A stretch of 42,559 nucleotides of DNA, from sequence record SRR20825019_475, one strand, 5' to 3'. Every line of letters begins with the position of its first letter. The first letter of the stretch is position 1. Made by a program: the position numbers and the translations under genes. Of this stretch, positions 12,769-35,818 are shown piece by piece. Below the pieces are notes generated by a model. That model saw nothing but the letters and a program-made list of their open reading frames with translations, was not told the DNA's origin and did no database searches.

Positions 12769-12769
12769 T

Positions 12770-13009: not shown

Positions 13010-13039
13010 CGCTAAACCTGTCTTGCTCGGACTGATTTG

Positions 13040-15564: not shown

Positions 15565-15695
15565 GGCGGTCCCGTTCATTTTTCGGCAACCATATGGCGG
15601 CGGGGTTACCGGAAGGTTTTCCGTGCCGCAGATGTGATCGACGACAGCCGAAACCCTCCTTACCATCCGGTCGTACGAGCCGAGAGGAAAAGCCG

Positions 15696-16004: not shown

Positions 16005-16036
16005 TTGCGGGCGGGAGGGACCCGCGCGAGGCTTCC

Positions 16037-16954: not shown

Positions 16955-16988
16955 TCGAGCCTCCTCGGAGCCTCAACGCATCCGGACG

Positions 16989-17642
16989 CTAACTGGTTTT
17001 CTCCACCTCGGCGGCGACGAGGTCGGCCAATTGCTGCGGACCGAAATCGACGAGTTCCTGCCCGTTCACGTAGAAGGTCGGCGTCTGCGCGATGCCCAGC
17101 GCCTCCAGATCCGTCATCTCCTGCCGCAGGGTCGCGGTCACGTCCTCGCCCTGTGCATCGGTGCGCGCCCGGGAAAGATCGAGGCCGGCTCCCGCCGCGG
17201 CTTGCCAGGCGAGATCGAGATTAGGCGCCCCATGGGCGGCCCAACTCGGCTGCGCGGCCAGCAATGCCTCCAGCACCGGCAGGAAAAGGTTCTGCTTGCG
17301 CGCCGCTTCGAGGATGCGGACCGCCTGGTCCGACCCTTCGTGCAGCGGAGCATAACGCAGCACCAGTCGCACACGGTCCGGATCACGGTCCATGATTTGC
17401 TTGACGATGGGATAGAACGCCCGGCAGGCCTCGCAAGAGGGGTCGAACCACTCGACGATCGTCACCGGCGCGTTCTGGGGACCGATCACGGGCGAGTTGA
17501 ACCGCACCAGGTTGGACGGTGCGACGGGTTCGGCGGTGGCGGCACGCGGGTTGCCGGCGAATTGCGGATAGAGGATCGCCCCGATGGCGAGAACGAGGAC
17601 GGCGACTGCCGCGGTGGCAAGGACCACTAGGCGACGATTCAT
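16989..17642 (-). CDS. DsbA-family thioredoxin-fold protein (BdbD-like)
   Basis: Start trimmed to MNRRLVV (overlaps the dsbB-like stop). TM, DPSCEAC, cis-Pro loop QTPTF. Confidence 0.9.
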   Translation of the reverse strand: MNRRLVVLATAAVAVLVLAIGAILYPQFAGNPRAATAEPVAPSNLVRFNSPVIGPQNAPVTIVEWFDPSCEACRAFYPIVKQIMDRDPDRVRLVLRYAPLHEGSDQAVRILEAARKQNLFLPVLEALLAAQPSWAAHGAPNLDLAWQAAAGAGLDLSRARTDAQGEDVTATLRQEMTDLEALGIAQTPTFYVNGQELVDFGPQQLADLVAAEVEKTS

Positions 17643-18070
17643 GAGGGGCGACTCCGGTTGACGAGTAAAAGGCATAGTAGGATGGCGGCGAAGGCCGACA
17701 AAGACAGCAGAGGCAGCGGGACGACGCTGAACAGGGTCATGGCTTCGTCCGAACAGGACGGACCCGTAGCGGTGCAGGGCTGAATGGCCTCAGGGACGAT
17801 GCCGTAGAACAGGAGGGAATGGAACGCGGCGAAGCCGAATCCGGCGATGGCCAGCGGGGCCGAATGCAGGATCGCGTTCCGGTCCGAGAGGAACGCGCCA
17901 ACGCCCAAGGTGATCACCAGGGGGAACATGGCGATCCGTTGGTACCAGCAGAGCACGCACGGCGCCTGTCCCATCACCTCGCCGATGAACAGGGCGCCTA
18001 GCGTCGCTACCAGGGCGACGGCCCATGCCGAGAAGAGCCAGGTCCAGGATCGATCATCTGTTGCGGACAT
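17639..18070 (-). CDS. dsbB: Disulfide bond formation protein B family (DsbB/BdbC-like)
   Basis: Four TMs, PCVLCWYQR, second Cys pair PCTATGPSC. Confidence 0.9.
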   Translation of the reverse strand: MSATDDRSWTWLFSAWAVALVATLGALFIGEVMGQAPCVLCWYQRIAMFPLVITLGVGAFLSDRNAILHSAPLAIAGFGFAAFHSLLFYGIVPEAIQPCTATGPSCSDEAMTLFSVVPLPLLSLSAFAAILLCLLLVNRSRPS

Positions 18071-18093
18071 GCGGGACTCCGAATTGCGCGCGC

Positions 18094-18124
18094 AACCTAC
18101 GACCTCAAGCCGCTAGAGGAGCAA
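18094..18124 (-). promoter_or_regulatory. Second MerR-type promoter-operator, for dsbB-dsbA-czcD
   Basis: Minus strand: TTGCTC, 19-bp spacer CTCTAGCGGCTTGAGGTCG, then TAGGTT. Same -35 and geometry as 8635-8665. Confidence 0.8.
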
Positions 18125-18328
18125 GACAAAATTGTCGCAGTCTGCTCGATAGCAATCCTGATTTCGGGAAAAAGTGGTGTGGCCGAAAACCATTTGTCGT
18201 CAGCGCAACCCTCAACTTCACGCCTACACTGATCGCGTCAACGGACCATCTTTCAACTGCTTAATCCCGGTTAGCGTAGGTCCACCGCTAGGTTGACCAA
18301 GCTCCCTCGACATTGCGCAAGAGATCCG

Positions 18329-18353
18329 TTATGCAAATGACTTGCAATTGCAT
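18329..18353 (+). promoter_or_regulatory. Putative Mur/Fur-type box upstream of mntH
   Basis: TTATGCAAATGACTTGCAATTGCAT contains the palindrome TGCAA-N5-TTGCA, resembling rhizobial Mur sites, immediately before mntH. Confidence 0.6.
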
Positions 18354-18365
18354 ATGTGGATTGTC

Positions 18366-19709
18366 ATGAAGGGTCCTTTGTCACCTTACAGTTCGGGCTG
18401 GCGCAGCGGCGGCGGCGATCCGTCATTGGTGGACGTTCATCGCAGTGTGCCGGTGGCTGCAAAGGGATCGGTCTGGCGCCGGGCTACTGCTTTCTTCGGT
18501 CCCGGTTATCTCGTGGCAGTGGGGTATATGGACCCGGGCAATTGGGCGACATCGCTGGCCGGGGGGTCACGCTTCGGCTACACGTTACTTGTCGTGGCCT
18601 TGGTCTCCAACGTAATGGCCATCATCCTGCAATCGCTCTGTGCCCGCTTGGCTATCGGTTCGGGCCGTGACTTGGCTAGAGCCTGCCGTGACGCTTTTCC
18701 GCTCCCGGTGGGCTTCGTGCTCTGGATCATGGCGGAGATCGCTATTGTAGCCACAGACATCGCCGAGGTGATCGGTACGGCAATTGGGCTCAATCTTTTG
18801 TTCGGTATCCCGCTTGAGCTCGGCGTAGTTATTACTGCGCTCGATGTGTTCCTTATTCTCTATCTGCAAAGGTTGGGATTCCGCTGGGTCGAGGCACTGA
18901 TAATTGCTCTCCTCGCCGTCATTGCGGTCTGCTTCGTGATACAGATCGCTCTCGCCGACCCAAATTGGAGCGATGTCATTCGCGGTTTTGCGCCGACCAC
19001 AGAAATCCTAACAAATCCGGACATGCTCTATCTGGCCCTGGGCATTCTCGGGGCCACGGTGATGCCCCATAATCTGTATCTGCACTCGGCCATCGTGCAA
19101 ACCCGCGATTACGGAGATAGCCTCCCCGAGAAACGCGAAGCACTGAAATTCGCCACGATCGATTCCACTGTGGCGTTGATGTTTGCACTGCTGGTCAACG
19201 CGTCCATCCTCATCCTAGCAGCGGCCACCTTTCACACGACCGGGCGCACGGAAGTTGCCGAAATTGGAGAGGCGCATGCATTGCTCGCGCCCATGCTCGG
19301 CGCCGCGATTGCGCCTACGCTGTTCGCCGTGGCGCTCCTATGCTCAGGGATCAACTCCACGGTGACGGCGACGCTGGCTGGGCAGATCGTCATGGAAGGG
19401 TTCTTGCGGTTTCGAATGGCACCATGGCTAAGAAGGCTGGTCACTCGCATCTTGGCGATCGCTCCCGCCGCTTTGGTCACCATATGGTATGGCGAGAGCG
19501 GAACAGCCCAGTTGCTTATCCTCAGCCAAGTTGTGCTCAGCATGCAGCTTTCATTTGCGGTGATCCCGCTCGTCCTCTTCACTGCTGATCGACGGAAGAT
19601 GGGAAGCTTAGTTGCACCGTTTTGGCTGATAGTGGTTTCTGGCCTCATCGCCATCACTATTGCAGGTCTTAATTTGAAGCTTTTGTGGGATTTCAGCAGA
19701 GGAGGCTAA
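18366..19709 (+). CDS. mntH: Nramp-family divalent metal (Mn2+) transporter
   Basis: [36 protein letters not shown]. Start trimmed to ATG 18366. Confidence 0.95.
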
Positions 19710-19778
19710 CATGGAAAGAAAGTTCTTGAGTTGACCCGAAGTTTGGCCAGCCGTTTACGTCGCAGTGCCACCCCTTGA

Positions 19779-20024
19779 TCCGAGATCGTCTAGCGCCTCA
19801 CTGGGAGCAATGGCCATTTGAAGGGCGTTGTTGAGATTGAGGCAGGACGACCCTGTCTCGATGTTGCCCGGCAACTTTTTCCATTGGAGAAGGGCGTGGT
19901 GCAGGCAAAAAAGACACCGATCCACGACCGCCTGGATCACTGTCTTGAGGACCTGGACGGGCCATTGAGCCAGGAGCCTCAGCGCCCGATAGACGAGTCC
20001 AAGGAAATAGTGAAGTATCTTTGA
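19779..20024 (+). pseudogene. Decayed CsoR/RcnR-family (NreA-like) metal-sensing repressor
   Basis: SEIV*RLTGSNGHLKGVVEIEAGRPCLDVARQL...IHDRLDHCLE...EIVKYL. In-frame TAG at 19791 (and TGA at 19776), no start codon, and expected His positions altered. Confidence 0.75.
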
Positions 20025-20089
20025 TATTCACGGTTCCCGGCTGACCGTGGCTGGGGTCTAAAATACGTTCTGCTTACGGCTGTGACCTG

Positions 20090-20460
20090 ATTGCCGGTTG
20101 CGGCGAGAAGCTCGGCAAAAGCTGCGGCGGTTTGATAGCAAAGCGAGGAGTGCGGCCCGCGTCGCAACGAGATCCTCCACCCGTTCGGCCATGGCGCTGC
20201 AAGTATAGTCGAGGCCGAAAGGACAGGCTCTCACTCAAGAGCCCGTCCCGAATCCCCCCTAAAGCTCTCGACGTACCGTTCTGCATCGGCTTGCTCGGCG
20301 CGATGTAGCTTTATTCGACGCCATAGTCCTCCCATCGAGCCAGGTTTGCGTTCGAGCTCTTCTTCCCGGTAGAGCCGATGGATGCGGTTGATCCCTGACA
20401 TCTCGCCCTCACGCCGCAGCAGGATGAGCAGTCAACGATAGCCGAACCGGCAGCTGGCTC
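20090..20460 (-). mobile_element. IS3-family transposase (OrfB) relic with stops, frameshifts and an internal deletion
   Basis: Minus-strand fragments RFGYR*LLILLRREGEMSGINRIHRLYREE, DYGVE*SYIAPSKPMQNG/VESF, IRDGLLSESL and PHSSLCYQTAAAFA match the IS3 HTH_21 and rve_3 regions. Confidence 0.8.
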
Positions 20461-20464
20461 GGTT

Positions 20465-21568
20465 CTAAATCTCGAAGTTCCGCAACCTTTCCCCGGCAGA
20501 CAGAAAAGGTCGCGGATCAATGGCACCGTTCTGGTCACGCACCTCGAAGTGCAGATGTGGGCCTGTCGACCGCCCCGTGGAGCCCACCAAGGCAATCTGC
20601 ATGTGCGCCTCGACCTCGTCACCCTCTTCTACCGTAGCTTGAGACAGATGCGGATAACGGGATATCAGGCCGGAAGGGTGCATGATCTCGACGACCCTAC
20701 CGTAGTCTCCCTTCCAGCCGACAAACGTCACAATTCCCCGTCCCGCACTTCGCACCGGTGTACCGGTCGGCGCGGGAAAATCCATACCGGAATGAAAGGC
20801 GCTCCGGCCAGTAAAAGGGTCCTGCCGCGTACCGAAGCCCGAGCTGATCCGTGACGTTTCGAGAGGATGATGGATAGGCACGTCATCCATCGCACGAAGC
20901 GCGTCATGAAAGCGATCCAACGCCTCAATGGTCTGGCCGATATCGATAAAGCCAGCGTCGGCGCGTTCAACAGCAGGAAAAAAAGGCCCGCCTCGAGCGA
21001 GGTCGACTATCCCCGGCGCATATCCGACACCCCCAAGCTCGGCGATGATCGTGTGGGTCGAGCGATTCACGGCGTCGGACAGGAACGCTACTGCCGCGAT
21101 CAGCTCACGCTCCATAATCCGAAGTTCACTGTCTACTACATTAAGTTCGTCGACATTGTTAATTATTCTCTGTCGCCCAGCGGGCTGCGTGTCGAGCGAC
21201 ACAATGCCCAAATCTGCAATTGTTTCCGCGACCGCCATCACTGGACGAAGCTGCTCTCCGATCTGCTCCTGCAAATCTGAAATTTCTTGAATTCTAGTGG
21301 CGGAGCTGCCGGCAGTTAAGATTTCGCGGGACCGTAATCGCTCGACAGCGGAATTAAGTTGGCTGATCCGATGGCCATAGGCGGCCGATATCTCTGTTCG
21401 CGTATCCCACAATTCCACTATGCCTGTGCTACGAAGCAACATGGATACGGTCATGCTGTTCGTGACCAGCAGACTACCAAGCACCACCCAGTGAACAAGA
21501 CGAATCTGCATAACTGCTGGGTGTCCGATGGACCGATCTAAGCTACGACTTCGAGTATCGCTAGCCAT
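20465..21568 (-). CDS. Second M23 metallo-endopeptidase (TM, coiled coil, LytM domain)
   Basis: SSGFGTRQDPF, FHSGMDF, GSTGRSTGPHLHFEV. Visibly lower GC than its neighbours. Confidence 0.88.
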   Translation of the reverse strand: MASDTRSRSLDRSIGHPAVMQIRLVHWVVLGSLLVTNSMTVSMLLRSTGIVELWDTRTEISAAYGHRISQLNSAVERLRSREILTAGSSATRIQEISDLQEQIGEQLRPVMAVAETIADLGIVSLDTQPAGRQRIINNVDELNVVDSELRIMERELIAAVAFLSDAVNRSTHTIIAELGGVGYAPGIVDLARGGPFFPAVERADAGFIDIGQTIEALDRFHDALRAMDDVPIHHPLETSRISSGFGTRQDPFTGRSAFHSGMDFPAPTGTPVRSAGRGIVTFVGWKGDYGRVVEIMHPSGLISRYPHLSQATVEEGDEVEAHMQIALVGSTGRSTGPHLHFEVRDQNGAIDPRPFLSAGERLRNFEI

Positions 21569-21628
21569 GGTTAACAAACCAGAAATCGTGCCCGCACGGG
21601 CCGCTCACCGGGTGCTCAGGCCGGAGCG

Positions 21629-21922
21629 CTAGTACTCGTCCGGATCGTTCTTTTGGGCGTACTCCACCCCGGGCACGCCTCCGTCCAAACCCAGGAAGAC
21701 GATACCCTCCGCTTCGAGAGCGTCCCGTACAGCCTGAATGCTCGCCGGCGTGACGCGGTCGTCGCCGGTTTCGATCGCCGCTACTGTGCGTCGAGCGATG
21801 CCGCTTCGTTCGGCCAGTATCTGCTGGGACCAATCCAGCAAAGCCCGGGCGGCTCTTATCTGCGCGGCATTGGGTTGGGCAAGGGTCAAGCTCGAGGTCC
21901 GTCGAATCGATTCCAAGGGCAT
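21629..21922 (-). CDS. XRE-family HTH transcriptional regulator
   Basis: AQIRAARALLDWSQQILAERSGIARRTVAAIETG...ALEAEGIVF. Start trimmed to MPLESIR. Confidence 0.88.
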   Translation of the reverse strand: MPLESIRRTSSLTLAQPNAAQIRAARALLDWSQQILAERSGIARRTVAAIETGDDRVTPASIQAVRDALEAEGIVFLGLDGGVPGVEYAQKNDPDEY

Positions 21923-21989
21923 CTTACCGCCACCATACGGCTCGTGTTGCACAAAATGTGCAAATGGACTTGACAAAGCCTGGCTGTTC

Positions 21990-22004
21990 CTATAGTGACT
22001 AGAG
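21990..22004 (+). promoter_or_regulatory. Third CadR/PbrR-type dyad, overlapping a TTGACA...TATAGT promoter candidate
   Basis: CTATAGTGACTAGAG versus CTATAGTAGCTAGAG at the ATPase promoter (13/15, both arms identical). TTGACA at 21970-21975. Confidence 0.55.
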
Positions 22005-22130
22005 TTATGGAAGCTGCGTGCGTTCACAGAAGGTGAACGCCGATCAAGACCTTCCCTCTCTCGTGCTCTTGCGCACGACCTCCCAGTTTCAGCGTCAGAG
22101 GACTTGTCCTAAAAGACAAGGAGAAGGTTC

Positions 22131-22658
22131 ATGCATCATCCTGTTGCCGTCATGGCTCGTGAAGAAGCCGATCGCTCCGAAGCGCGTTCACGGCAGTTGC
22201 GCCGTCGCCTCTCCGGTCAGCTGTTCAACATCCTCGGGGAATCGAAAGAGGTCGTGGTGGTCGGTAGCGATCCGCTCCTCGTCCACTACACCCGGGCGGA
22301 GGGCTTGGATCCGGAATCGTTGGCCGCCTGCCAGATCCTGATCGACGGAGCGCCGGTCACGATCGTAGGTGTTCCCAATCGCATCTGGTACGGCTCCGTC
22401 ATGCGGGACGTCCATCGCGTCAAGCGGAACATGTTGGCCTCCGGCAGGTCTTGCATTCTCGTGCCCCAGCGCGCGCTCGAAGGAATTGCGAGGCTGCACT
22501 CCCGCCCGATCGCGGAGCGTGATCCGCAAATCCTCCTGCAGGCGATACGTACGGCTCCGCTCCTGCGCGATATCGATGCCTGCCGGTACGGGCGAGGCCA
22601 TGACCCGGTCGGCTGCCTCGCCGTCGAACTCGCGACCGGTACGCCCTGCCTGGGTTGA
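22131..22658 (+). CDS. Hypothetical protein, paralog of the next ORF (degenerate TnsA-like fold suspected)
   Basis: AGGAGAAGG RBS. Gapless 56-aa alignment to 22845-23456 (GLxP..L...V.VP.R......M......K......GR...LVP). Confidence 0.7.
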   Translation: MHHPVAVMAREEADRSEARSRQLRRRLSGQLFNILGESKEVVVVGSDPLLVHYTRAEGLDPESLAACQILIDGAPVTIVGVPNRIWYGSVMRDVHRVKRNMLASGRSCILVPQRALEGIARLHSRPIAERDPQILLQAIRTAPLLRDIDACRYGRGHDPVGCLAVELATGTPCLG

Positions 22659-22844
22659 GACCAAGCCTCATCACCGCGATACGCCACTATGTCCTTTCGC
22701 TGACCTATACCCAGCGAGGTGGCGGAGCTTTGGCCTGACCTCGGCCACAAGCACCTGACGCCTACCGAATTCCGCCACCTTCGATCGGCGGCTCGCCGGT
22801 CCGATCAAGTTTAACCCAATTCCGACGAACCAAGGAGATGTCCC

Positions 22845-23456
22845 ATGCTGGAGGCCAATTCCGCTCGCGTGCAATCCGAACCCTGCAAATGGCGTTCGCA
22901 ACAGGAAAGGGAGGGGAAATCCCTGCGCCGTGCCGCCGAGGCGCTCGTCATGGCGTATCCCGGCATCCGTCGCTTGCCGGATGATCACGGCATCGAGGAA
23001 ACCGCAGCCGAACTGGGGCTCGAACCTCACGAACTCGTGGTGGTGCCTGTGGCTGTCGGCCATCGCGCGGTGGACCTCGTGGTGGTGCCCACCCGGACGA
23101 GGCGTCGGGGTGGAATGCTCCTCTTCTTCGAATTGAAAGCCTCTGCGGAGACGATCGGTCGTACCGTGGTCCTGGTACCGGAGAGCTTCGTCCGTCGCGA
23201 GCCCCGCTTGACCAACGCCTTCGTCATCGCAGAGGCGGCGCAGGCCGCCGTGGGCGCGACCGATCGTATGAGGATGCTTGTTCATCTCATCGAGAACGGC
23301 GGCAGCGCGCCCCTGCTCGACCTAGCGGGCCTGGTCAGCAGCGCCGATCCGGTGGCGGGAGTGCTGGGACTGGTCGTGGAGGGCGGTCTGCACATGGACC
23401 TCGACGCCAGGCTTATGCCTTCCAATCAGGTCCACCTGGTGGAGCCGGGCCTATGA
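22845..23456 (+). CDS. Hypothetical protein resembling TnsA without the PD-(D/E)xK catalytic motif
   Basis: AAGGAG RBS. C-terminal half (VPESFVRREPRLTNA...GLHMDLDARLMPSNQV) parallels the TnsA C-terminus in this window (LLCIDIAGRLAPESMV). Confidence 0.7.
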   Translation: MLEANSARVQSEPCKWRSQQEREGKSLRRAAEALVMAYPGIRRLPDDHGIEETAAELGLEPHELVVVPVAVGHRAVDLVVVPTRTRRRGGMLLFFELKASAETIGRTVVLVPESFVRREPRLTNAFVIAEAAQAAVGATDRMRMLVHLIENGGSAPLLDLAGLVSSADPVAGVLGLVVEGGLHMDLDARLMPSNQVHLVEPGL

Positions 23457-23794
23457 GCGGTGACAACGGCGACCCCGTCGACTTCCTGGGGGCCGACCCT
23501 TTGGCGACCGCCGAGCTGCTGGAGGACCTGGCCGCTGACCTTCGCGGCCTTGCCGCCGGCTCTCTTCCCTCGCCCGGGCGCCTGCGGGAAGCACCGCATC
23601 TCCGGCGCTGGGGCTTCGCGCCGAGGAGCGCGCTCTGCCTGGCAGGCACGGCATACGGCCACCCGCGGATCGTCGCCGGCAGGGAATGCGTGACGTCCGA
23701 GATCTTCGCGATCGCCCGGGACCGCAGTTGGGCAAGGACCCTATCGCGCTACTACCAATTGGGTCCTCCGAAGGTCTTCGGCCTGGACGAGTGA
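23453..23794 (+). CDS. DUF6634-like protein
   Basis: CLAGTAYGHPRI...VTSEIFAI...WARTLSRYYQLG pattern, family recalled from memory. ATGA-coupled to the previous ORF. Confidence 0.7.
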   Translation: MSGDNGDPVDFLGADPLATAELLEDLAADLRGLAAGSLPSPGRLREAPHLRRWGFAPRSALCLAGTAYGHPRIVAGRECVTSEIFAIARDRSWARTLSRYYQLGPPKVFGLDE

Positions 23795-23809
23795 GCAGAG
23801 GTGCCAGGC

Positions 23810-25798
23810 ATGTTCGACCACGACGAAGACGATTTCCCTTTTCAGCACGGAGACGACGAGATGACGATCGGCAGGAAGGATGAGGGACTGACGGTCCGGC
23901 AGGCGCTGGCCGAACTGGCGGTGAAAGGTGCGATCTCGACGGATCTGCGCAAGTCCTTGATCAAGGGGGAACTGCGCTCGATCGTGCTGGTCGTGCCGTC
24001 CGCCGAGTGGACCAACATGGCCGGAGGAGCGGTGGAGGATATTCACGACCGCATCTACGCGTTCTGCAAGGCTTCGGGGAAGAAAGAAGCGGAGGACGCC
24101 AGTGCCATCAACAAGGCCCTTGCTGCCGGCAGGACGGTCGTGGCCGTGACGCCGTCCGTGCGGACGTTGCCGGCGATCTTCAAGACGGTCGCATCGGAGA
24201 CCATCGAGGTCCCGCCGCCAAGCGCAGCTCTGGTGGCCCAATTGGTCCGCAGGTTCTCGGTGGGTCGCTTGCCATCCTCCTTTTCGAGGCTCGACACCTC
24301 GGTCCTCGACTTCGACGAGCTGTGCGGGCTTGTGGAGAAGGGCGCCGACGCCGCGGTGACGGCGGAACGCATCGCCAATGCCATCTCGGCGAAAACGCGC
24401 ACGGCTCGTGTCGGCGAAACCCTGCCGGATCTGGAGGTGGCGGTCGAATTCGGCGATGCGCGGCTATGGGCGATCGATCTCAAGCAGGATCTGTCCGATA
24501 TCAAAGCCGGGATCATCGGCTGGTCGGAGGTGGACAAGGGCTGCGTCCTCCATGGACCGCCCGGGACGGGCAAGACCACATATGCCCGTGCGCTGGGCCA
24601 GTATCTCGGCATTCCCGTGGTTATCGGGAGCGTGTCGGAGCTGTTCGCGTCCAGCGCGGGATATCTGGATTCGGTGATCAAGGCCCAGCGAGCCCTTTTC
24701 GAGCGTGCGATGCAGCAGGCGCCGGCCGTCCTGTTCCTCGATGAGATCGACCAGATGCCGGATCTCGACCAGATCTCCCAGCGCGGCAAGGACTGGTGGA
24801 GCCCGGTGGTCGCCGACTTCCTTCAGTTGCTCGACAGTGCCGTGTCCGACAGGGATGGTCTGATCGTCATCGGCGCAACGAACCGCGTCGAGGCCCTGGC
24901 ACCGGCTTGCCTGCGTCCCGGGCGGCTGGAGCGCTCGATCTATCTGGGACCGCCCGACGAAACAGGAGCAGCGAGGGTCCTGCGTCATCACCTCGGGCCT
25001 TCTCTCGCCGATGCCGATCTCTCTCCCATGGCGAGCATCTGCTCGGCTCGCAGGATGACAGGGGCCGACATCATGGACCTCGTGAGATCGGCCAAGCGGC
25101 TGGCAAGGCGCGAGAAGCGCGAGATGTCGTTGTCCGATCTGACTGCGCGGCTCGTGCCGCCGTACGAATTGACCGAGGCCCAACGAAGTCGCGTGGCTCT
25201 GCACGAGGCAGGACATGCGGCCATCGCGGCCCTGCATTTTCCCGATCGGCTGGTGTCCGTCAGCATCGACCCCTTTGGCGGCGGCATCGCCTCGGGTGGT
25301 CACGTGCGAGTCGAAATCCCCGATGACCTTCTCGAGACGAAGTCCGACCTCGATCGGCGGGTGGAGATGCTGCTCGCGGGCCGAGCGGCCGAGATCGCCT
25401 TTCTAGGCGAGGCATCATCGGGATCGGGTGGTTCGGAGACCAGTGATCTCGGGCTCGCCATGCGAATGCTCGCGGCGGCGCATCTGTCGTTCGGCACTGC
25501 GGATGCCCCGCGTTGGCGATGCGAGCCCGAAAGGGCGATGGACATGCTGCGACTGGACCCTAGGACAATGTCCCAGGTCGAAACGGAGCTTGCGAAGCTG
25601 GCGGCGTCGGCCATCGACCTGGTGCGCTCCCGCCGAAGCGAGATCGAGACCTTGGCCGGCGAGCTCCTGTCCCGCTCTACGTTGTCGGCTGCGGAAGTGC
25701 TGACGATAGTGCGCAAGGGCGAATCGGCGTCCACGAACCTCGTATCGCGAAGGTTCGAATCGAACGAATCGACGCTGCCTTGGACCGAATCGGCGTGA
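23810..25798 (+). CDS. Soluble FtsH-like AAA+ ATPase / M41 zinc protease
   Basis: Walker A GPPGTGKT, Walker B LFLDE, SRH GATN...LRPGRLE, HEAGH, LAGRAAE, GGSETSD. No TM segment. Confidence 0.9.
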   Translation: MFDHDEDDFPFQHGDDEMTIGRKDEGLTVRQALAELAVKGAISTDLRKSLIKGELRSIVLVVPSAEWTNMAGGAVEDIHDRIYAFCKASGKKEAEDASAINKALAAGRTVVAVTPSVRTLPAIFKTVASETIEVPPPSAALVAQLVRRFSVGRLPSSFSRLDTSVLDFDELCGLVEKGADAAVTAERIANAISAKTRTARVGETLPDLEVAVEFGDARLWAIDLKQDLSDIKAGIIGWSEVDKGCVLHGPPGTGKTTYARALGQYLGIPVVIGSVSELFASSAGYLDSVIKAQRALFERAMQQAPAVLFLDEIDQMPDLDQISQRGKDWWSPVVADFLQLLDSAVSDRDGLIVIGATNRVEALAPACLRPGRLERSIYLGPPDETGAARVLRHHLGPSLADADLSPMASICSARRMTGADIMDLVRSAKRLARREKREMSLSDLTARLVPPYELTEAQRSRVALHEAGHAAIAALHFPDRLVSVSIDPFGGGIASGGHVRVEIPDDLLETKSDLDRRVEMLLAGRAAEIAFLGEASSGSGGSETSDLGLAMRMLAAAHLSFGTADAPRWRCEPERAMDMLRLDPRTMSQVETELAKLAASAIDLVRSRRSEIETLAGELLSRSTLSAAEVLTIVRKGESASTNLVSRRFESNESTLPWTESA

Positions 25799-26070
25799 CG
25801 TCTCAGCCCTTTGGGCGTGTGCCATCTCGCCGCTTTTCATTCCCGATCGGGAAAGTTTCTCGTGGCGACGAGCACGCAGAGGCCTTCCGAAGGAGGTGCA
25901 GTGCTGATTCTTTTTTGCCCTGGAAGAACGAGGGCGAAAATGACATCTGCGACCGTCGTGAACGGCGTCACGACATGCGATCGCGGGCAGTAATTTCCGG
26001 ACCGGGATCGCCTATTGACACAGCCGTGACGCAAACCCGAGGCTCTTAAACCATTACATTAAGAAACGCC

Positions 26071-26150
26071 CACAAGCCGAGTCATGACTCCGAAATCCGC
26101 CTCCGAATCAAACGGAGGGGGCTTGCGCACCGGTCGATTTGAGTCATGAT
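26071..26150. promoter_or_regulatory. GAGTCATGA sites upstream of tnsA resembling the transposon-end motif
   Basis: Palindrome GAGTCATGACTC at 26079-26090 and GAGTCATGAT at 26141-26150; compare GACTCATGATT at the element end. Confidence 0.45.
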
Positions 26151-26480
26151 CGTGAGGCTTCAACGTTGCCGACGTTTTCCAAGATACCGGTCGTTGGCGA
26201 AGGAAAGGTGAACGCAAAAACGGAAACGCCCCGGATTGCTCCAGGGCGTTAGAATACCGAGACCCGGCACGTGTTTGGAAAACACCAGGTCAATCCCACC
26301 GCCGAAAGGCGACAAATCGCTTGGAAAGGCCTGGCAGCCGATCCTAGCAAACGGAACGACCAAGGCCGTTCCCGCACACATAGGCCCGTCCCACAAAGAC
26401 AGGAACCACACACATGCACGGCGAGTATCCGCTGGGCGCCTTTTCGCGTCAAGCACTTTCCGGGCATGGAAGGAGAAACC

Positions 26481-27329
26481 ATGCCTAAGAGTATCAAGCC
26501 GCCGCGGCGCGGCGAACTGCTGTCTGATCAGCTTCTGCTCGAAGACCATCAGATCTTCGCCCGCATCTTCGTCGCCGAGGACGGCGGTCCTATCCGCACC
26601 CTGATCACCGGGCGCGAGCACCATGCCACGGGACGCTTCGTCTCGGTCAAGGCCGGGCACCGTGCGTTGCCTTGGGAATCGCTGCGCGGCGAACTGTCCG
26701 CGCTCGAACTGATGGAGGCGGCGCCTCCGGTCCATAGGATGATGGCGCAGCCGCACCGCCTTGAAATGATCATCGAGGGTGTTCCCGCGCCATTGGTGTT
26801 CTTCCCCGATCTGCGCCTGACCGTTGACGCACGCTTTGCGTCCGCACTGGCCGGTGGCGTACCGTTTCTGCTCGCCTGCGCCGAATGGCGTCCCGACGCG
26901 TCCACGGCGGGCGACACCCGCGAGTTGATCGTGGAGGTGAAGACCGCGAACGACCCGCGCAACGCCGATCCGGTCTACCAGTCAAAGCTCGCCTTGGCCG
27001 AGGAGGTCTACGGCAGGATTGGTTGGCAGTTCTTCCAATTCGTCGATCCCACCGGGCCCGGCTACTCCCGCATCGCCCATGCGGTGCGCGAGATCGTGCT
27101 CGACCACGACGTCATCGTCTCGCCCCATGAGGTGCATCTCGCCCAGAAGGCGCTGAGCGACGGCCCGACGACGCTGGATGCGGTCTTGGATGCTCTCGGC
27201 GGCAACGTGGCGGCCATCCAGAAGGCCTGCGCGCTTCATGTCCGCCGCCTGCTCTGCATCGACATCGCCGGACGGCTGGCGCCGGAGTCCATGGTGTTCC
27301 CTATGGGTTCGATCGGAGGCGCGGCATGA
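26481..27329 (+). CDS. tnsA: TnsA-like endonuclease of a Tn7-like transposon
   Basis: AGGAG RBS. TGRFVSVK, WESLRGE, AQP, FFPD, IVEVK (PD-(D/E)xK), and a C-terminal winged-helix-like region. Confidence 0.88.
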   Translation: MPKSIKPPRRGELLSDQLLLEDHQIFARIFVAEDGGPIRTLITGREHHATGRFVSVKAGHRALPWESLRGELSALELMEAAPPVHRMMAQPHRLEMIIEGVPAPLVFFPDLRLTVDARFASALAGGVPFLLACAEWRPDASTAGDTRELIVEVKTANDPRNADPVYQSKLALAEEVYGRIGWQFFQFVDPTGPGYSRIAHAVREIVLDHDVIVSPHEVHLAQKALSDGPTTLDAVLDALGGNVAAIQKACALHVRRLLCIDIAGRLAPESMVFPMGSIGGAA

Positions 27330-27544
27330 GTCAGGTCTTCCAATCCCCCCGCGCCTTTCCGGTGCACTTCGTGCTGGTCGACGATGATGGGTTGCCTTGG
27401 CTGGGCACGCTGGTGGCCGTGACGGTGGAAGGTTACGCGTTCCATATCGACGAGATCGATTCCGAGATCGTGTTGTCCGAGGAAACCCTCGAGGACATGT
27501 TCGACCGGGATGCCGCCGTCGAGATCCAGGGGGCGCCGTCATGA
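27326..27544 (+). CDS. 72-aa acidic protein resembling the N-terminal domain of the adjacent TnsB
   Basis: GGAGG RBS, ATGA overlaps with both tnsA and tnsB, and by-eye alignment to TnsB residues about 15-68. Confidence 0.8.
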   Translation: MSQVFQSPRAFPVHFVLVDDDGLPWLGTLVAVTVEGYAFHIDEIDSEIVLSEETLEDMFDRDAAVEIQGAPS

Positions 27545-29859
27545 GGCCGTCCTGGATCACCATCGACGTCGAGGCCGGCGAGACCTATTGGCTCACGCTG
27601 CCCGACCGCACGTTCCTCGCCACGTTCGAGAAGGTCACGCTCCAGCACCAACTGCGCTTTTCGGACGAGCAGCTGGACATGCCCGTCGATATCGCTCCGC
27701 ACCTCTTCGAGAAGATGCGGAGCGACGGGCGCGCCGTTCGCATTCCCAAGGGCAGCATCCCGAGCCGGAAAAAATCCGCCTTCGAGCTCGGCGACGTCCA
27801 TCCCTCGACCCTTCTCGATCCCGAGGAACGCGGCATCGGCGACAAGGAGCGCAAAGAACGGCTGGCCCAGTGGCAGAAGTTCGAGCGCGCGCGGACGCTG
27901 GCGTGGTGCGCATCGGAATACGACGCCACTCCTCACCTGGGCCGCGGGCACAACTGCATCGACGACCACTTCAAATCCAAGGACGTCAAGAAACGCGCCT
28001 GGGAGTTAGGCTTCGTGTGGCGTCCCGACGCGGCCACGATCCTCCGCGCCATCGATGCCTGCGGCGTGCCTGGGTCGCGCCCCGTCTCGGCGTTCTTCGA
28101 CAAGCGGGGCAAGCACGACCGGAGCAAGCGCTATCCGGAAGTTTTGCTGACGTGGGCCAAGGAAAGCATCGACGCTTACTGGGCATCGATCACCGAGCGC
28201 TACTGCGACGTGCGCGAGAGCTTCTACAAGAAGATCGACGAGGAGAACGAGGAGCGCGTCAAGCAGGGCCTCGAGAAATTGCCCCGAATTTCGCCCGAGA
28301 CCTTCCGCAAGTGGGTTGACGAAGAGGAGTCATGGTGGACCTGGTCGACCCGCTACGGCGAGAAGGCGGCCAACGCCCGCTACAAGGGTCGGGGCGTCCC
28401 GATGGAGGCGTCCCGCCCCCTCGAACTGGTGCTCATTGACCATACCCGTCTCGACGTGTGGGCCGTGGTCGAGGACCAATATGGTCGCCTCGTCATGACC
28501 GAACGTCCATGGCTCACCCTGGCCATTGATGTCTATAGCCGAATGATTCTCGGCGCGGTCCTGAGCTTCGAGCCGCCGAGCGTCTACAGCGCCATGCTCT
28601 GCCTGCGGCAGATCGTTCGAGCCAAGGACTTCCTCATCGAGAAGTACGGCCACCATAAGGGGGCGACGGACGGCTGGGGCAAGCCTACGACCATCGTCAT
28701 GGACAATGCCTGGGAGTTCTCCGGCATCTCCATGCAGTCGGTATGCGAGGCGGCGGGCATCCACGTCGTCTGGGCGCCGGTCGGCACGCCGACGTTCAAG
28801 GCGATCGTCGAGCGCTTCTTCCGCACCCTCAACGAAATGGTGTGGCACCGCCTCGGCAGCGGCATCCCGTTCAAGCCGCAGGTCATGCAGGAACTGGGCC
28901 TCGATCCCAGGGCGAAGGCGCTGTTCCGGATCGACTACCTCACCGCCAGGATGTGGGACGGCATCGTCAACATCTATCACGTCGAGCCTCATTCCGACCT
29001 AAACATGGCGCCCGCTGAACGCTGGTCAATGGGCGTCCAGGCCAAGACCCGTCCTACGATGGACGATGTGGGTGCCTTGGACAAGATGCTCGGCAATGTC
29101 TCGCGTTGCGTCCTGAGCGCCGAGGGCGTCTCCGTGAATGGCCAGCGCTTCCACGAGCCGGCGACCACGACGGCCTTGCTGGAGAACCTGCTGAAGTACG
29201 GCGCCAAGCGTTCGCGCCGCAAGGGCTTCGGCTCCAGCGGCACGGTGGCTGTGATCGCCAACTGGGATCGCGTGGATGCCAGCCATGTCCATGTCTGGGA
29301 TTTCTCCAACAATACGTCGGTGCGCCTGCCCAACGTCGACAAGCACGTGCACGGGGTCCCCGGTGTCGACGGAGCACCGGCCCAGGGATTGAGCTGGGCT
29401 GTGGTGGACGCGATCAAGGCGTTCGCCGCCGAACGCAACATGGCTTTCCACAGCCCCCAGGAAAAGGCTGCGGCCCGGCACGCCTATTACCACGAAATGC
29501 CGGAGAAGGTTGCGGCCATGCCGTTCAACGCCGCCCGGCACTACGCCGCCGAGATCGATCGTAGCCCCAGTCTGGTCGATGGCGACACCGTGATCCAGCA
29601 TGCCGTGCCGGCGACGCCGAAGGGTGCCGCCGCCGAGACACCGCGTGAATTCTCGGCGGCACACCGAACCGGCGAATGGGCACCGCCCAAGGCGCCGTCG
29701 CGGGGGCGGAAGAGCCGGTCTTCGGGATCGAAGGGCCGATCCGCTCCGCCGTCCGCGTCGCCGCCGAAGCCGCCCGAAACGCATCCCGCCCCTGCCGACC
29801 TATCCAACCACATCCTGAATTCCGCTGCTGCTCTAGATGCGCTCGCGGACGACCTTTGA
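27541..29859 (+). CDS. tnsB: TnsB-like DDE transposase
   Basis: Start trimmed to ATG 27541. LIDHT, RPWLTLAIDVYSR, VMDNA, KAIVERFFRTL, YHVEPHS; Pro/Ser-rich C-terminal tail. Confidence 0.92.
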   Translation: MRPSWITIDVEAGETYWLTLPDRTFLATFEKVTLQHQLRFSDEQLDMPVDIAPHLFEKMRSDGRAVRIPKGSIPSRKKSAFELGDVHPSTLLDPEERGIGDKERKERLAQWQKFERARTLAWCASEYDATPHLGRGHNCIDDHFKSKDVKKRAWELGFVWRPDAATILRAIDACGVPGSRPVSAFFDKRGKHDRSKRYPEVLLTWAKESIDAYWASITERYCDVRESFYKKIDEENEERVKQGLEKLPRISPETFRKWVDEEESWWTWSTRYGEKAANARYKGRGVPMEASRPLELVLIDHTRLDVWAVVEDQYGRLVMTERPWLTLAIDVYSRMILGAVLSFEPPSVYSAMLCLRQIVRAKDFLIEKYGHHKGATDGWGKPTTIVMDNAWEFSGISMQSVCEAAGIHVVWAPVGTPTFKAIVERFFRTLNEMVWHRLGSGIPFKPQVMQELGLDPRAKALFRIDYLTARMWDGIVNIYHVEPHSDLNMAPAERWSMGVQAKTRPTMDDVGALDKMLGNVSRCVLSAEGVSVNGQRFHEPATTTALLENLLKYGAKRSRRKGFGSSGTVAVIANWDRVDASHVHVWDFSNNTSVRLPNVDKHVHGVPGVDGAPAQGLSWAVVDAIKAFAAERNMAFHSPQEKAAARHAYYHEMPEKVAAMPFNAARHYAAEIDRSPSLVDGDTVIQHAVPATPKGAAAETPREFSAAHRTGEWAPPKAPSRGRKSRSSGSKGRSAPPSASPPKPPETHPAPADLSNHILNSAAALDALADDL

Positions 29860-29866
29860 GGTAACC

Positions 29867-30865
29867 ATGACCAAGACGCTTACCAACTCCGAGATCCTCG
29901 CCGTGTTCCGCAAGCTCAGGGTCAAGCACCCCCGTCTCGACATCGTCACGGAGGTTTGCGACGACCTTCGCGCCACGATCACCGACGATGAACCCAAGCA
30001 GTTCGGCACCCTGTTCGCACCCAGCCACGTCGGTAAGTCCACCGCGGTCAAGAACTACCAGGAAAAAGTCGCAGTGCCGGAAGCGATTTCCCGAGGGCTG
30101 GTTCCAGCCGATCTGCCCCTCGATGAACAGGTCCGCCTCCAAAAGCTCGTCGTGCATGTCACGCTGGAAGGCGGCGCGACGCCTCGTTCCCTGTGCGCCG
30201 ACATCCTGGCTGCCCTCGGCGATCCCCGCTCCGCCCGGGGATCGAAAAACCTGATGCTCCGCCGTGTGTATGACCTCCTGTCCACTCTCGGCGTGGAACT
30301 GCTTGTTATCGACGAGATCCAGCACTTGGCGGTCTCCAAGCACCGCATGTCTGAGGATGCGGACCTGCGCTCGATCGAGCGCTCCAGGACCAGCGAAGTG
30401 ACTGACACGTTGAAGGCCATGCTCATCCGCGGAGTGGTGCCTATGCTGTTCGTCGGCATCGAGGAGGCACGGCCCTACCTTCTCGACGACATCCAGCTTG
30501 CGCTGCGCTGCCATGAGGAGATCGACTTCGGTGAATTGTCCTGGGAGGATACGCAGGAGCGTCAGGTCTTCCAGGATTTCGTCGGACGCCTCGGCATTCA
30601 TCTGGCCAAGGAGGGGTTGTTCCCGCAAAGGGCAGATTTCCTGAACGCGGATATCCCGGCGGCCTTGCACGAGGCTTCGCTCGGTCGTCTGGGCATCGCC
30701 TGCCGCATCGTCGCCAAGGCCTGCATGCATGCTGCCAAGGCCAAGGCGGATACTGTGACGCGCGAGCACCTGTCCAAGGCGGTCGATACCTTCGCGATCC
30801 CGCGCGGCATCGTGAAGACCAACCCCTTCAAGCGCGGCGGCGACGCCCGACTGGTGGCCGCATGA
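29867..30865 (+). CDS. tnsC: TnsC/TniB AAA+ ATPase
   Basis: GAGG RBS. Walker A APSHVGKS, Walker B LLVIDEIQH, QLALR, C-terminal NPF. Confidence 0.9.
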   Translation: MTKTLTNSEILAVFRKLRVKHPRLDIVTEVCDDLRATITDDEPKQFGTLFAPSHVGKSTAVKNYQEKVAVPEAISRGLVPADLPLDEQVRLQKLVVHVTLEGGATPRSLCADILAALGDPRSARGSKNLMLRRVYDLLSTLGVELLVIDEIQHLAVSKHRMSEDADLRSIERSRTSEVTDTLKAMLIRGVVPMLFVGIEEARPYLLDDIQLALRCHEEIDFGELSWEDTQERQVFQDFVGRLGIHLAKEGLFPQRADFLNADIPAALHEASLGRLGIACRIVAKACMHAAKAKADTVTREHLSKAVDTFAIPRGIVKTNPFKRGGDARLVAA

Positions 30866-32796
30866 CGCTTCCTGTCTCCGTCCTGCCCCATGGCGACGAG
30901 CATCTCCCGGGCCTGGTCGTCCGCGCGGGCAATCTCATGGGCTACGATCTCACCAGCGATGTCCTCATCCCTCTGGGATACAAGTCCCGCGCTGAATCCA
31001 TCGCGTCCGCGCCCGGTTTGAAGTTTCCCCTTGCGGATCATCTGGGATGCCGCGTCGAGGATATTTCGCCGCTCTTCCTCGATCAGGCCGGGCGTTCCGG
31101 CTGGTTGCGGTTCTTCGGTGCCGAGATTCGCGCGATCCACCGCGAGGTGACCGTGCGCCGCATCGCGCCCGGGACGCTCGCGACATGCGGATACCACAAG
31201 GCGGCCTGGCAGATCCGTGCCTTCGGCTTCGATCCGGCAACGGGCGAGCGCCTGATCTCGGAGTGTCCGGTCTGCGGGACGACGTTGGGCTGGGTGCGGG
31301 TCCGCGATCTGGCGTTCTGCGACCGCTGCGATCGGGTGGACGACCATGGGTTCGTTCGCTCCAAGGTCGATCTGCGGGATTGGCCACAGGAGAAGGTGGA
31401 GGTGGAGGACATGGAGGCCTTGCGCTTCGTGACCTCGCTCGTCGATCCCGATCCTGCCGTCAGGGCAGCTTACGCGCCGGCGCTGCACCCCGATATCGAA
31501 ACGGATCGCGGATCCCTGTTCGAGTTCGCGATCTCGATCGCGAGCGCCATGACGCAGGACCCGAAACGCTCGGTCACGTCGGTGGCCAAGCCCGGGAGCC
31601 GCGAGATGTTCGATCGCATCGAACCCGATGTCCTCGCCAAGGCGGGCCGCGTGGTCCTGTCTTGGCCCGATGGGTTTCACGACCTCTGCTCGCAAGCCCG
31701 TGATTCCGCGAGCGAACGCAGCGGCCATTACGGCGTGAAGAAGGAGATCGGATCGCTCTATGCCCTGACCACGGACCGCGCGCTCCCTCCCGAACTGCGT
31801 GCCGCTGTGCGGAAGTCCGTCGAGGACGACATGGCCATGACCGCGGTCAGTCTGCCCACCGTGCGCAAGGGCAGCTATCGCAATCGCTCCGATCTCCTGA
31901 CGGCCTACGAGGCCGCCAAGGAATTCGGCATCCGCCCGAAGCTGTTCAAGATTCTGGCCGGGCATCCGGAGGTGCGCGTCATCCGCAATGCGGGATCGAA
32001 GAACTCCCCTATGCTGTTCGAACGCGCACAGATCGCGATGATCGCCGCACAACGCGCGGACATGGAGGCCGCCAGTTCGGCTGCCGTCCGCCTCGGCCTA
32101 CCGACCGGGGCGATGGCCGAGCTGGCGGAGGCCGGACTAGTGGATACTGTTGGAGGTCCGGTCCTGATGCTCGCGGTGGGCAAGGAATACTACACGCGTT
32201 CTAGCGTCAACCGGCTGGTGGACCGCCTGGAATCGAAAGTGTTGCCCGCGGTACCGCCATCCACCTATATCCGCTTGACCAAGGCGGTCTACAGGTTGCC
32301 GCCCGGGCCGAAACCATGGGCGGGCATCATCGCCAGGGTGATCGACGGGACCATCCCAGTGCACCGTATCGACGGCAGGCTGACCGGCACCATGACATCG
32401 TTGGCGGCGCCGGATTTCGAAACCGTCGTAGCAGCAGTCGGGCGGCATGCCGGTTCTGATGAAGCCCGTGACGGTCTGCTCACCCACATAGAGGCGTCGG
32501 TCCTACTTGGCGTCACCGAGCCAATGGTTGGTCGCTTGGTCCTTCGACGGCTGCTTCCCGTCAAGGCCAAAGGCCAGGTTTCGATTGCCCGGGCCGACGT
32601 GTTCGCCGTGGCGCGAAAGTGGATGTTCACGAATGAAGCCTCGCGGCGCCTCGGCGTTCCGAACCGCCTGGTGCGCACCACCCTCGCCAAGTTCGGAGTC
32701 CACCCGAAGCACGAACTTCGTGAGCGGCAGCAGCTCGTCTTCGCGCGTGAAGAAGTCGAGCGCGTGCTCGAGACCGTGGTGAGCACCGCCGCCTAG
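30862..32796 (+). CDS. tniQ: TniQ/TnsD-like target selector with tandem C-terminal HTH modules
   Basis: N-terminal LPVSVLPHGDEHLPGLVVR, AWQ...LISECPVC...FCDRC. Repeated EAxxxLG-type HTH motifs in the C-terminal half. ATGA-coupled to tnsC. Confidence 0.85.
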   Translation: MTLPVSVLPHGDEHLPGLVVRAGNLMGYDLTSDVLIPLGYKSRAESIASAPGLKFPLADHLGCRVEDISPLFLDQAGRSGWLRFFGAEIRAIHREVTVRRIAPGTLATCGYHKAAWQIRAFGFDPATGERLISECPVCGTTLGWVRVRDLAFCDRCDRVDDHGFVRSKVDLRDWPQEKVEVEDMEALRFVTSLVDPDPAVRAAYAPALHPDIETDRGSLFEFAISIASAMTQDPKRSVTSVAKPGSREMFDRIEPDVLAKAGRVVLSWPDGFHDLCSQARDSASERSGHYGVKKEIGSLYALTTDRALPPELRAAVRKSVEDDMAMTAVSLPTVRKGSYRNRSDLLTAYEAAKEFGIRPKLFKILAGHPEVRVIRNAGSKNSPMLFERAQIAMIAAQRADMEAASSAAVRLGLPTGAMAELAEAGLVDTVGGPVLMLAVGKEYYTRSSVNRLVDRLESKVLPAVPPSTYIRLTKAVYRLPPGPKPWAGIIARVIDGTIPVHRIDGRLTGTMTSLAAPDFETVVAAVGRHAGSDEARDGLLTHIEASVLLGVTEPMVGRLVLRRLLPVKAKGQVSIARADVFAVARKWMFTNEASRRLGVPNRLVRTTLAKFGVHPKHELRERQQLVFAREEVERVLETVVSTAA

Positions 32797-32850
32797 CAGG
32801 GCGCCGTCCGCCACCTAAACGATTGATCGAAATCGCCGGTTTCTGTTCTA

Positions 32851-32880
32851 TGGTCGGGCCTTCGCCCGGCCATTTTTCTT
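32851..32880 (+). terminator. Rho-independent terminator of the tns operon
   Basis: TGGTCGGGC-cttc-GCCCGGCCA followed by TTTTTCTT. Confidence 0.65.
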
Positions 32881-32902
32881 GGCCTGCGCGGCACCGCAGG
32901 CC

Positions 32903-33062
32903 ATCGACTCGTATTTGCCTGTCGAAACGTCGATTATCGACTCATGATTGCTGGTCGCGTACTTGGGATCGACTCAGAATTCCCTGTGGCGTTGACTCAG
33001 AATTTTCCTGCCGTCATTGAATCCAAAGGGTTTTTTCGACTCAGGATTTATAGGTCCTGACA
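32903..33062 (-). repeat. Transposon end: five putative TnsB-binding repeats plus a TGT terminus
   Basis: GACTC cores at 32906, 32939, 32971, 32994 and 33038 (consensus tcGACTCAgrATT). Read inward, the terminus is TGTCAGGA-CCTATAAATCCTGAGTCGA, starting at 33062. Confidence 0.75.
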
Positions 33063-33330
33063 TATCTCAATTGCCTTGCGTGAAGAGCCGTTCTGGCTCA
33101 CATCGCGCTCAGTTAAGTTTGATGAAACATCCCAAAATGACAGTTCTTCAGCAATTCGTTGACATTGTTCCTTCGCCTGATGGAACTCACGTCAGATTTT
33201 AATTGATTGCCGAAGTCGTTTCCGAGAATCAATATTTGGCTGTTCTCTGTAGAGGGAGTTCTCGCGATCAGGGCGGTTCTTGCTATGACAGACGATATGA
33301 GAATGTGTATCCAATGGGGCTTTGGGCGTC

Positions 33331-35815: not shown

Positions 35816-35818
35816 GCC

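Follow-up and report, generated by a model that had tools for sequence, protein, structure and literature searches.

A Tn7-like transposon apparently directed to tRNA-Met in Devosia-type Alphaproteobacteria

Introduction

Tn7-like elements that target tRNA genes through a TnsD-type protein, that carry metal resistance as cargo or that form large islands are known already, to judge from parts of the literature on this group (PMC8649781, PMC9881144, PMC11406308). In a cyanobacterial clade with fused TnsAB, represented by PmcCAST (Tn7744) and McCAST (Tn7575), a large TniQ-domain protein directs insertion downstream of tRNA genes, as set out in passages of PMC9881144 and PMC11406308. Here we analyze a 42,559-nt stretch of DNA from sequence record SRR20825019_475, referred to below as the window, in which positions 1-33062 very probably form the right-hand part of a large cut-and-paste transposon of the Tn7 type targeted to tRNA-Met. 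Judged on its sequence, this is apparently a real and recently mobile TnsD-directed, tRNA-targeting element; its hosts are Devosia-type Alphaproteobacteria. It displays a defined end anatomy, a fixed insertion site and orientation, 5-bp target duplications, intact catalytic motifs and near-identical copies in diverged genomes.

As far as the PmcCAST/McCAST clade is portrayed in those passages, our element resembles it in having a large selector with C-terminal DNA-binding domains, in inserting in one orientation with the tRNA gene left intact, and in termini that are not always TGT/ACA. It differs in that TnsA and TnsB are separate, that no second TniQ and no CRISPR-Cas were found within the searches given below, that its hosts are Alphaproteobacteria, and that all sites at each end point one way. 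Its target is tRNA-Met(CAT), with insertion 10-14 nt after the gene, whereas a passage of PMC9881144 gives 29 +/- 1 bp for McCAST. Tn6677 and the I-F3 CRISPR-associated transposons provide the closest solved TnsB and TnsC, both proteins being placed by their scores against solved structures, and share with it a short TnsC of ~340 residues and the TniQ core fold. Here, however, the same searches found no cas genes or CRISPR array, and the selector has a TnsD-type extension of ~300 residues with multiple helix-turn-helix (HTH) modules; it presumably binds DNA itself.

Like Tn7, the element has asymmetric ends with several sites each and a 5-bp duplication, and its tns genes are transcribed in the direction that leads away from the attachment site. 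It also shares with Tn7 a heteromeric TnsA+TnsB transposase, an AAA+ TnsC and a TnsD-type selector that would recognize a conserved gene by its 3' part. Its TnsB is nevertheless distant from that of Tn7 (30 bits), no TnsE was found among the ORFs scanned (see below), and the target is not glmS. Its cargo sits between the attachment-proximal end and tnsA, whereas Tn7 carries cargo downstream of the tns genes, and its proximal end has fewer sites (three versus five), which are spaced where those of Tn7 overlap. With Tn5053/Tn402 the locus has in common the TniB Pfam match of TnsC and the order transposase, ATPase, TniQ. Unlike them, it contains a TnsA-like gene, has no resolvase gene or res site next to tniQ and no gene between tniQ and the end, and uses a fixed chromosomal target, where Tn5053/Tn402 target a plasmid res site.

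A Tn7-like operon runs up to a five-site transposon end

The genes for a TnsA-like protein, a 72-residue open reading frame (ORF), TnsB, TnsC and a TniQ-like protein all lie on the plus strand and are chained through ATGA-type overlaps of stop and start codons (Table 1); all five frames are open. Beyond a terminator, a similar form of which precedes the repeats in the related genome G111, CGACTC cores start at 32905, 32938, 32970, 32993 and 33037 as direct repeats, and the terminus, ...CCTGACA, ends at 33062. Allowing up to two mismatches, the 12-mer consensus has six matches in the 42.6-kb window against 2.85 expected, and four of the six fall within 110 nt (32938-33048), all on the plus strand. 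An Rfam search of 25.7-33.1 kb gave no match.

The alignment with the copy of this element in genome G001 stops exactly at 33062. After ...ACA, the window continues with TATCT, G001 with CAATT and the copy in genome G081 with TCTCA, and the sequences are unrelated further on. Given the stop of the alignment and these three different flanks, the breakpoint at 33062 is exact. The right flank of the window, with RND efflux genes and others, is similar to G001 in scattered places only (72-80%).

A preliminary description of this DNA had pointed to the tight coupling of tnsA, the small ORF, tnsB, tnsC and tniQ, followed by a terminator, five repeats and a terminus, all of which can be read in the sequence. 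It had also listed cas, CRISPR and tnsE as missing from the window, and we agree: the window contains no CRISPR-like repeat array, and a Pfam scan of 35 window ORFs and 10 G001 ORFs, with smaller ORFs outside the scan, returned no Cas family and no tnsE family. Its picture of a TGT terminus with arrays of TnsB sites is right for 33062 and does not extend to the family, in which the terminal triplets vary between TGT, TGA, TAA and TAT. TGT/ACA termini are not universal in Tn7-like elements either, according to a passage of PMC9881144.

Complete copies place the second end beside tRNA-Met(CAT)

Positions 1-18139 and 21613-33062 of the window are 96% and 98% identical, respectively, to the copies in G001 and G081, and the identity to G001 from 23.5 kb onward is about 99.3%; the flanks of the two copies are unrelated or only 80-87% identical. 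With a weight matrix derived from the five sites of the window, and circular for those five themselves, no inverted site of at least 11 bits is found in the whole window. In G001, the far end escaped an exact 12-mer search and was located by the weight matrix through two inverted sites 48 kb away. There the element ends in ...GCGTCA, and a tRNA-Met(CAT) gene starts 14 nt beyond. The second end lies about 41 kb upstream of tnsA in G001, G081 and G111 alike.

Read in the orientation of the window, the junctions consist of the tRNA gene with its CCA, 9 nt, 5 nt, the element and the same 5 nt. Proximal ends were located in seven elements; all seven abut tRNA-Met(CAT) in one orientation, and the abutting end is always the three-site end. 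The spacer measures 9 nt in six of them and 7 nt in G045. Perfect 5-bp duplications flank six of the seven elements: CAATT in G001 and TCTCA in G081 (both elements 47,976 bp), CTCTG in G111 (50,508 bp; TnsB 79% identical to that of the window), GGCGT in G045, TGGCT in G229 and TATCT in the organism of the window, as read from contigs of sequencing runs X19-X21. The seventh, in G050, has GGCGT/GACGT, with one mismatch.

Runs X19-X21 contain 100% of the sampled words of window 32700-33900, which covers the right junction, and each yields one contig that covers the terminal 76 nt of the element, crosses the spacer and extends 58 nt into the tRNA gene; a further 18 metagenome runs contain 26-30% of these words. 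The contigs were aligned to the proximal end of G001, and the differences from G001 give, in window orientation, CCA + TTGTCTTCA + TATCT, then the element. The 14 spacer letters were pieced together by hand from the difference tables. The flanking letters are AGATA on the contig strand, which is TATCT in window orientation.

Genome G100, 93-95% identical to window 34056-42559, is the closest host relative and carries the empty site: directly after its tRNA-Met comes sequence homologous to the window from 33063 on, the GAGCCGTT..GGCTC hairpin included, and the genome, which is 88% complete, has no TnsB match. Right of the element, window 33100-34055 is a stretch of ~950 bp with a low guanine-plus-cytosine (GC) content of 0.50 and a 215-residue ORF (33322-33969) with a weak Clp-protease match. 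Neither the empty site of G100 nor G036 contains this stretch, which may be what is left of an earlier insertion at this attachment site. We also observed that DNA beside the distal end in G001 (C8:496137-510119) is homologous, at 80-87%, to tRNA-side DNA in G081 (C1:1386356-1399772), with the order inverted; the two genomes differ in the arrangement of the tRNA-Met locus or of the segment that bears the element.

These junctions settle several expectations raised by the window alone. The cargo had been placed upstream of tnsA and the other end to the left of the window, as the ~41-kb distance in G001, G081 and G111 confirms; a 5-bp duplication had been expected and is perfect in these three genomes; and the predicted letters, TATCT, are those that flank the far end in the X19-X21 contigs. 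The comparison with empty sites that had been proposed is answered by G100, where tRNA-Met runs straight into the homologue of 33063 onward.

The right end is conventionally the one upstream of the tns genes, and in Tn7 the attachment site is located outside it, as stated in a passage of PMC11406308. The operon is transcribed away from the tRNA gene, so its polarity relative to the target is canonical, as in Tn7. About 41 kb of cargo separate the target-proximal end from tnsA, with the operon set against the distal end, a cargo placement that is conserved in the family. Of the non-canonical five-gene layout once ascribed to the locus, the cargo placement stands; the polarity is that of Tn7, and only in the sublineage of the window does the small ORF occur and the end follow tniQ directly. 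In that sublineage nothing but the terminator separates tniQ from the distal end; in the examined relatives with 42-47% TnsB identity, a 173-residue ORF and a putative toxin-antitoxin-like pair, our own reading of the translations, are found there.

Core proteins and a proposed route of transposition

TnsB matches the Pfam family rve with an E value of 2.2e-07 and 31.5 bits, slightly below the cut-off of 32.6. Among solved structures, Tn6677 TnsB is its best match (E 1.8e-28, 102 bits), followed by the TnsB proteins of PseCAST (96 bits), ShCAST (53 bits) and Tn7 (30 bits), and the catalytic D, D and E align with those of Tn6677 TnsB. TnsC matches AAA_22 (E 9.8e-19, 68.4 bits) and TniB (E 8.5e-14, 51.9 bits) in Pfam, both above the cut-off, and its closest solved relative is VchTnsC (E 6.8e-10, 42 bits). 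The TnsC proteins of relatives align from residues 6-15, and the real tnsC start may be the second ATG, at about 29867.

The 644-residue TniQ-like protein has a weak sequence match to the TniQ of structure 7u5d (E 0.015). Its AlphaFold model has a predicted local distance difference test (pLDDT) score of 75.5, and I-F3 TniQ chains make up its ten best Foldseek matches (E 1.2e-04 to 2.8e-03), with template modelling (TM) scores of 0.36-0.42 on the target. In an alignment of eight family members, the zinc-finger cysteines C135, C138, C153 and C156 (CxxC...CxxC) are invariant and the N-terminal DE motif is conserved. In the model, the C-terminal 300 residues form several small HTH modules that match BldC, RacA and SoxR-type domains, an architecture that corresponds to the TnsD type as given in section 10 of PMC10293859. 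A search of G001 found a single TniQ homologue and no second TniQ, and in a class-wide sample homologues of the selector occur in 3 of 400 genomes besides G001, at 25-27% identity.

For the 282-residue product of the first gene, the NCBIfam TnsA_like model gives 19.7 bits, far below its cut-off of 110. The best PDB match of its structure model (pLDDT 64.9) is Tn7 TnsA (Foldseek E 4.4e-03), and a comparison of the two by VIA gives a Z score of 8.1 and a root-mean-square deviation of 7.2 over 195 aligned residues. E66, D110 and E152-x-K154 are invariant in all eight family members aligned. We regard the assignment of this protein as TnsA-like as moderately supported.

By homology with Tn7 and Tn6677, the TniQ/TnsD-like protein would recognize the 3' part of the tRNA-Met(CAT) gene and recruit the short AAA+ TnsC, which would bridge to and activate the end-bound TnsA+TnsB. 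TnsA+TnsB are predicted to cut both strands, in cut-and-paste fashion, and the element would then be joined 10-14 nt after the CCA.

Apparent recent mobility and alternative readings

Aligned over 48,105 bp, the G001 and G081 copies show 99.66% identity, whereas the surrounding chromosome is 80-87% identical and differently arranged, which points to a recent and independent arrival. It is unlikely that the copy in the window, for all its Tn7-like anatomy, has become a fossil that no longer moves and is retained for the sake of its cargo. Mobility is read from sequence alone, the G111 terminus is aberrant, and the cargo is a mosaic, with blocks of 88-99% identity and a 3.5-kb segment at 18140-21612 in place of one of 1.8 kb, which suggests recombination rather than repeated transposition. 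A fossil is nonetheless hard to reconcile with five open core ORFs that keep their catalytic motifs, with perfect duplications in six of seven elements, and with an element identity of 99.66% between genomes that have different duplications and share 80-87% identity in their flanks.

That the locus is instead a classical integrase-type island, in which the Tn7-like genes are mere passengers or relics without influence on where it sits, we consider very unlikely. Integrase-driven islands usually sit at tRNA genes and the cargo is island-like; yet neither the 10 scanned ORFs beside the G001 tRNA nor the 35 window ORFs include an integrase, the borders are without a repeat of the tRNA 3' end, the 5-bp duplications differ between genomes at a fixed distance from the CCA, and inverted multi-site ends match at both borders.

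Tn7 itself has an end just upstream of tnsA, and this precedent, with two GAGTCATGA words in the 680-bp gap 25799-26480, would favor a compact, cargo-free transposon of ~7 kb with its second end at about 25.8-26.5 kb and plain chromosome to the left, a reading that is scarcely credible when the window has no inverted site of at least 11 bits, when similarity to G001 and G081 runs left to position 1 while the right flank is unrelated, and when the duplications pair 33062-type ends with ends 48 kb off. The GAGTCATGA words at 26080 and 26140 had been considered as a near left end and were dropped, there being no inverted site in the window.

Several points weigh against the preferred reading of positions 1-33062 as part of a tRNA-Met-targeted Tn7-like transposon. 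Among the junctions, the duplication in G050 has its mismatch, the spacer in G045 is 2 nt shorter, and the distal terminus in G111 reads ...ATA, not ...ACA. The proximal end was not found in G037 and G232 with the two-site pattern, and G167, G227 and G086 were outside that search. The far end lies outside the window, and its junction is known from the X19-X21 contigs, which possibly come from the source of the window itself. Among the proteins, the 282-residue TnsA-like product has no Pfam match, and the 644-residue TniQ-like protein has none to Pfam TniQ, with HTH_17 at 539-585 its only match; both identities are of moderate strength, built on moderate-confidence models, weak to moderate fold scores, motifs and gene position. 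In addition, our searches found no route of transfer between cells, no close plasmid relative and no second or TnsE-like targeting pathway.

A wider family with conserved end anatomy

Among 243 genomes of the host family, 22 have a TnsB match with an E value of 1e-30 or better, and 11 have a full-length match (42-99% identity). The order tnsA-tnsB-tnsC-tniQ is kept in the seven relatives examined, and members with 42-47% TnsB identity use the same tRNA, the same orientation and the same five-site/three-site ends. A TnsB search for related loci returned one locus, in a record titled Devosia sediminis MSA67, and a plasmid collection contains no close relative, its best TnsB match reaching 33% identity. 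The literature surveyed describes no Devosia element and no such tRNA-Met site, although the supplementary tables of PMC8649781 and PMC10293859 may list them. The preliminary description had suggested a little-described alphaproteobacterial lineage, which is plausible in view of this absence from the literature and of the 22 genomes.

The ends are asymmetric, with five sites at the distal end and, inverted, up to three at the proximal end. Measured from the tip, cores lie at 21, 65 and 88 nt at both ends, with extra ones at 120 and 153 nt at the distal end only. All three proximal cores are present in G111 and G045; G001 and G229 show those at 21 and 65 nt, and we read the third proximal site of G001 as degenerate. 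Five-site distal ends spaced as in the window occur in G050 and G045, the spacing being 44/23/32/33 in the window versus 43/23/32/32 in G050, at 45% TnsB identity. The distal end of G229 has four exact cores at the same positions and a fifth that reads GAATC.

At locus L084 of G045 we observed a second proximal end of the window type (TGACGTGACCAGAAA..CTGAGTCG), in the same orientation and 145 nt inward from where the 45%-type element ends; we placed it about 146-200 nt inside the first proximal end. This double end suggests that successive elements pile up at the tRNA-Met site, or that they recombine with one another.

Implications

Our analysis adds to the Alphaproteobacteria a cleanly delimited Tn7-like family that has apparently been mobile recently; its fixed attachment site, at tRNA-Met(CAT) with insertion 10-14 nt after the CCA, is new. 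With a single protein selector and defined minimal ends, the family should be useful for comparing how TnsD-type proteins read tRNA genes and how end asymmetry sets orientation. Blocks of 48 kb with copper, zinc, manganese and defense genes apparently move between Devosia-type species in this way. For annotators, cargo is to be expected upstream of tnsA in this family, and the operon abuts the distal end. The general picture of how Tn7-like elements function is unchanged.

Table 1. Features of the window and the evidence for them
Feature	Position	Strand	Evidence or remark
Predicted transposon part inside the window	1..33062		cargo, then core genes, then distal end; proximal end and tRNA-Met off the left edge
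FtsH-like AAA+/M41 protease gene	23801..25798	+	Pfam AAA and Peptidase_M41
tnsA-like endonuclease gene, 282 residues	26481..27329	+	model matches Tn7 TnsA; invariant E, D, ExK
Small ORF, 72 residues	27326..27544	+	coupled to tnsA and tnsB; dN/dS; present in G111
tnsB, DDE transposase, 772 residues	27541..29859	+	Pfam rve; Tn6677 TnsB match
tnsC, short AAA+ regulator, 342 residues	29837..30865	+	AAA_22, TniB, VchTnsC
TniQ/TnsD-like target selector gene, 644 residues	30862..32796	+	Foldseek I-F3 TniQ; HTH_17; invariant cysteines
Intrinsic terminator after the operon	32850..32873	+	10-pair stem, 7 GC pairs, T-run
Transposon end, five TnsB-type sites	32903..33062	+	CGACTC cores; ...ACA at 33062
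Right copy of 5-bp target duplication, TATCT	33063..33067	+	same letters beside far end in X19-X21 contigs
Chromosomal DNA that follows tRNA-Met in the empty site	33063..33100	+	homologous to G100 stretch after tRNA-Met

Accessory genes and cargo

The 72-residue ORF occurs also in G001, G081 and G111 only (56% identity in G111); relatives at 42-47% TnsB identity are without it, and their tnsA directly overlaps tnsB. In one pairwise comparison, the ratio of non-synonymous to synonymous substitution rates (dN/dS) is 0.38 in its own frame versus 1.27 and 1.45 in the other frames, on which account it is probably a genuine gene. Pfam, NCBIfam, PADLOC and ESM Atlas (best score 0.82) assign it to no family. 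A BLASTP comparison with the N terminus of TnsB found no match, and a profile comparison gave a weak one (probability 31%, E 5e-4, 44 columns).

The FtsH-like protein is soluble in type, retains its Walker A and B motifs and HEAGH, and has no obvious N-terminal membrane segment. Homologues at 35-50% identity, a divergence that resembles that of TnsB, are encoded just upstream of tnsA in G037, G045, G050, G111 and G167; others lie ~1.4 kb upstream of the TnsB match in G086 and, 22 kb off, within the element in G229. In G100, where the site is empty, the only match is one of 33% over the AAA domain. The gene may be cargo that has stayed linked to the tns operon over a long time, or it may assist the transposition module.

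One could go further and propose that the family evolved accessory control of Tn7-type transposition, with the 72-residue ORF as a regulator, the FtsH-like protein as a remodeller and a reversed end asymmetry, a proposal to which we give little credence. Under it, the small ORF could have arisen as a copy of the N-terminal domain of TnsB that then diverged, and could regulate or inhibit end binding, by analogy with the Mu repressor and MuA; the protease could serve specifically to remodel the transpososome or turn it over, as ClpX does for Mu; and the fewer, spaced proximal sites could serve orientation control with an end asymmetry opposite to that of Tn7.

In the gap upstream of tnsA, the minus strand has a promoter-like site at 26452-26424 and terminator-like hairpins at 26422-26405 and 26250-26225. 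These signals (26225-26452) may belong to a short antisense or divergent transcript. DNA upstream of 26447 is not conserved with G111.

The cargo within the window encodes a copper P-type ATPase, MerR, SCO1, PCuAC, a CDF transporter, a DsbA-like protein and Nramp, as well as two M23 peptidases, a dGTPase-type defense gene, a Schlafen/AlbA_2 gene and the FtsH-like protease. Beyond the window, the G001 copy adds a penicillin-binding protein (PBP) transpeptidase, CDF and ZIP transporters, a multicopper oxidase, a C-5 methylase, a HEF_HK/response-regulator pair and AbiU2. No recombinase or integrase was found in the 35 window ORFs or in 10 ORFs of the 16.6 kb beside the G001 tRNA, ORFs below 130 residues being outside the scan.

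Comparison of the copies suggests that the cargo is a mosaic. Window 18140-21612 (3.5 kb), with an Nramp transporter gene (18342-19709) and an M23 peptidase gene (20465-21577, minus strand), stands where the G001 and G081 copies have a different segment of 1.8 kb. Window 11000-16500 has a lower GC content (0.57-0.62) and is ~99% identical to G001, where the adjoining blocks are ~95% identical. It holds the dGTPase-type defense gene (11380-12768) and the Schlafen/AlbA_2 gene (13300-14697, minus strand) and looks like a separately exchanged defense islet within the cargo.

Outside the element, an Rfam COG3860 RNA motif (39016-39070, 74.6 bits) lies upstream of a DUF2087 gene (39169-39690), a known association.

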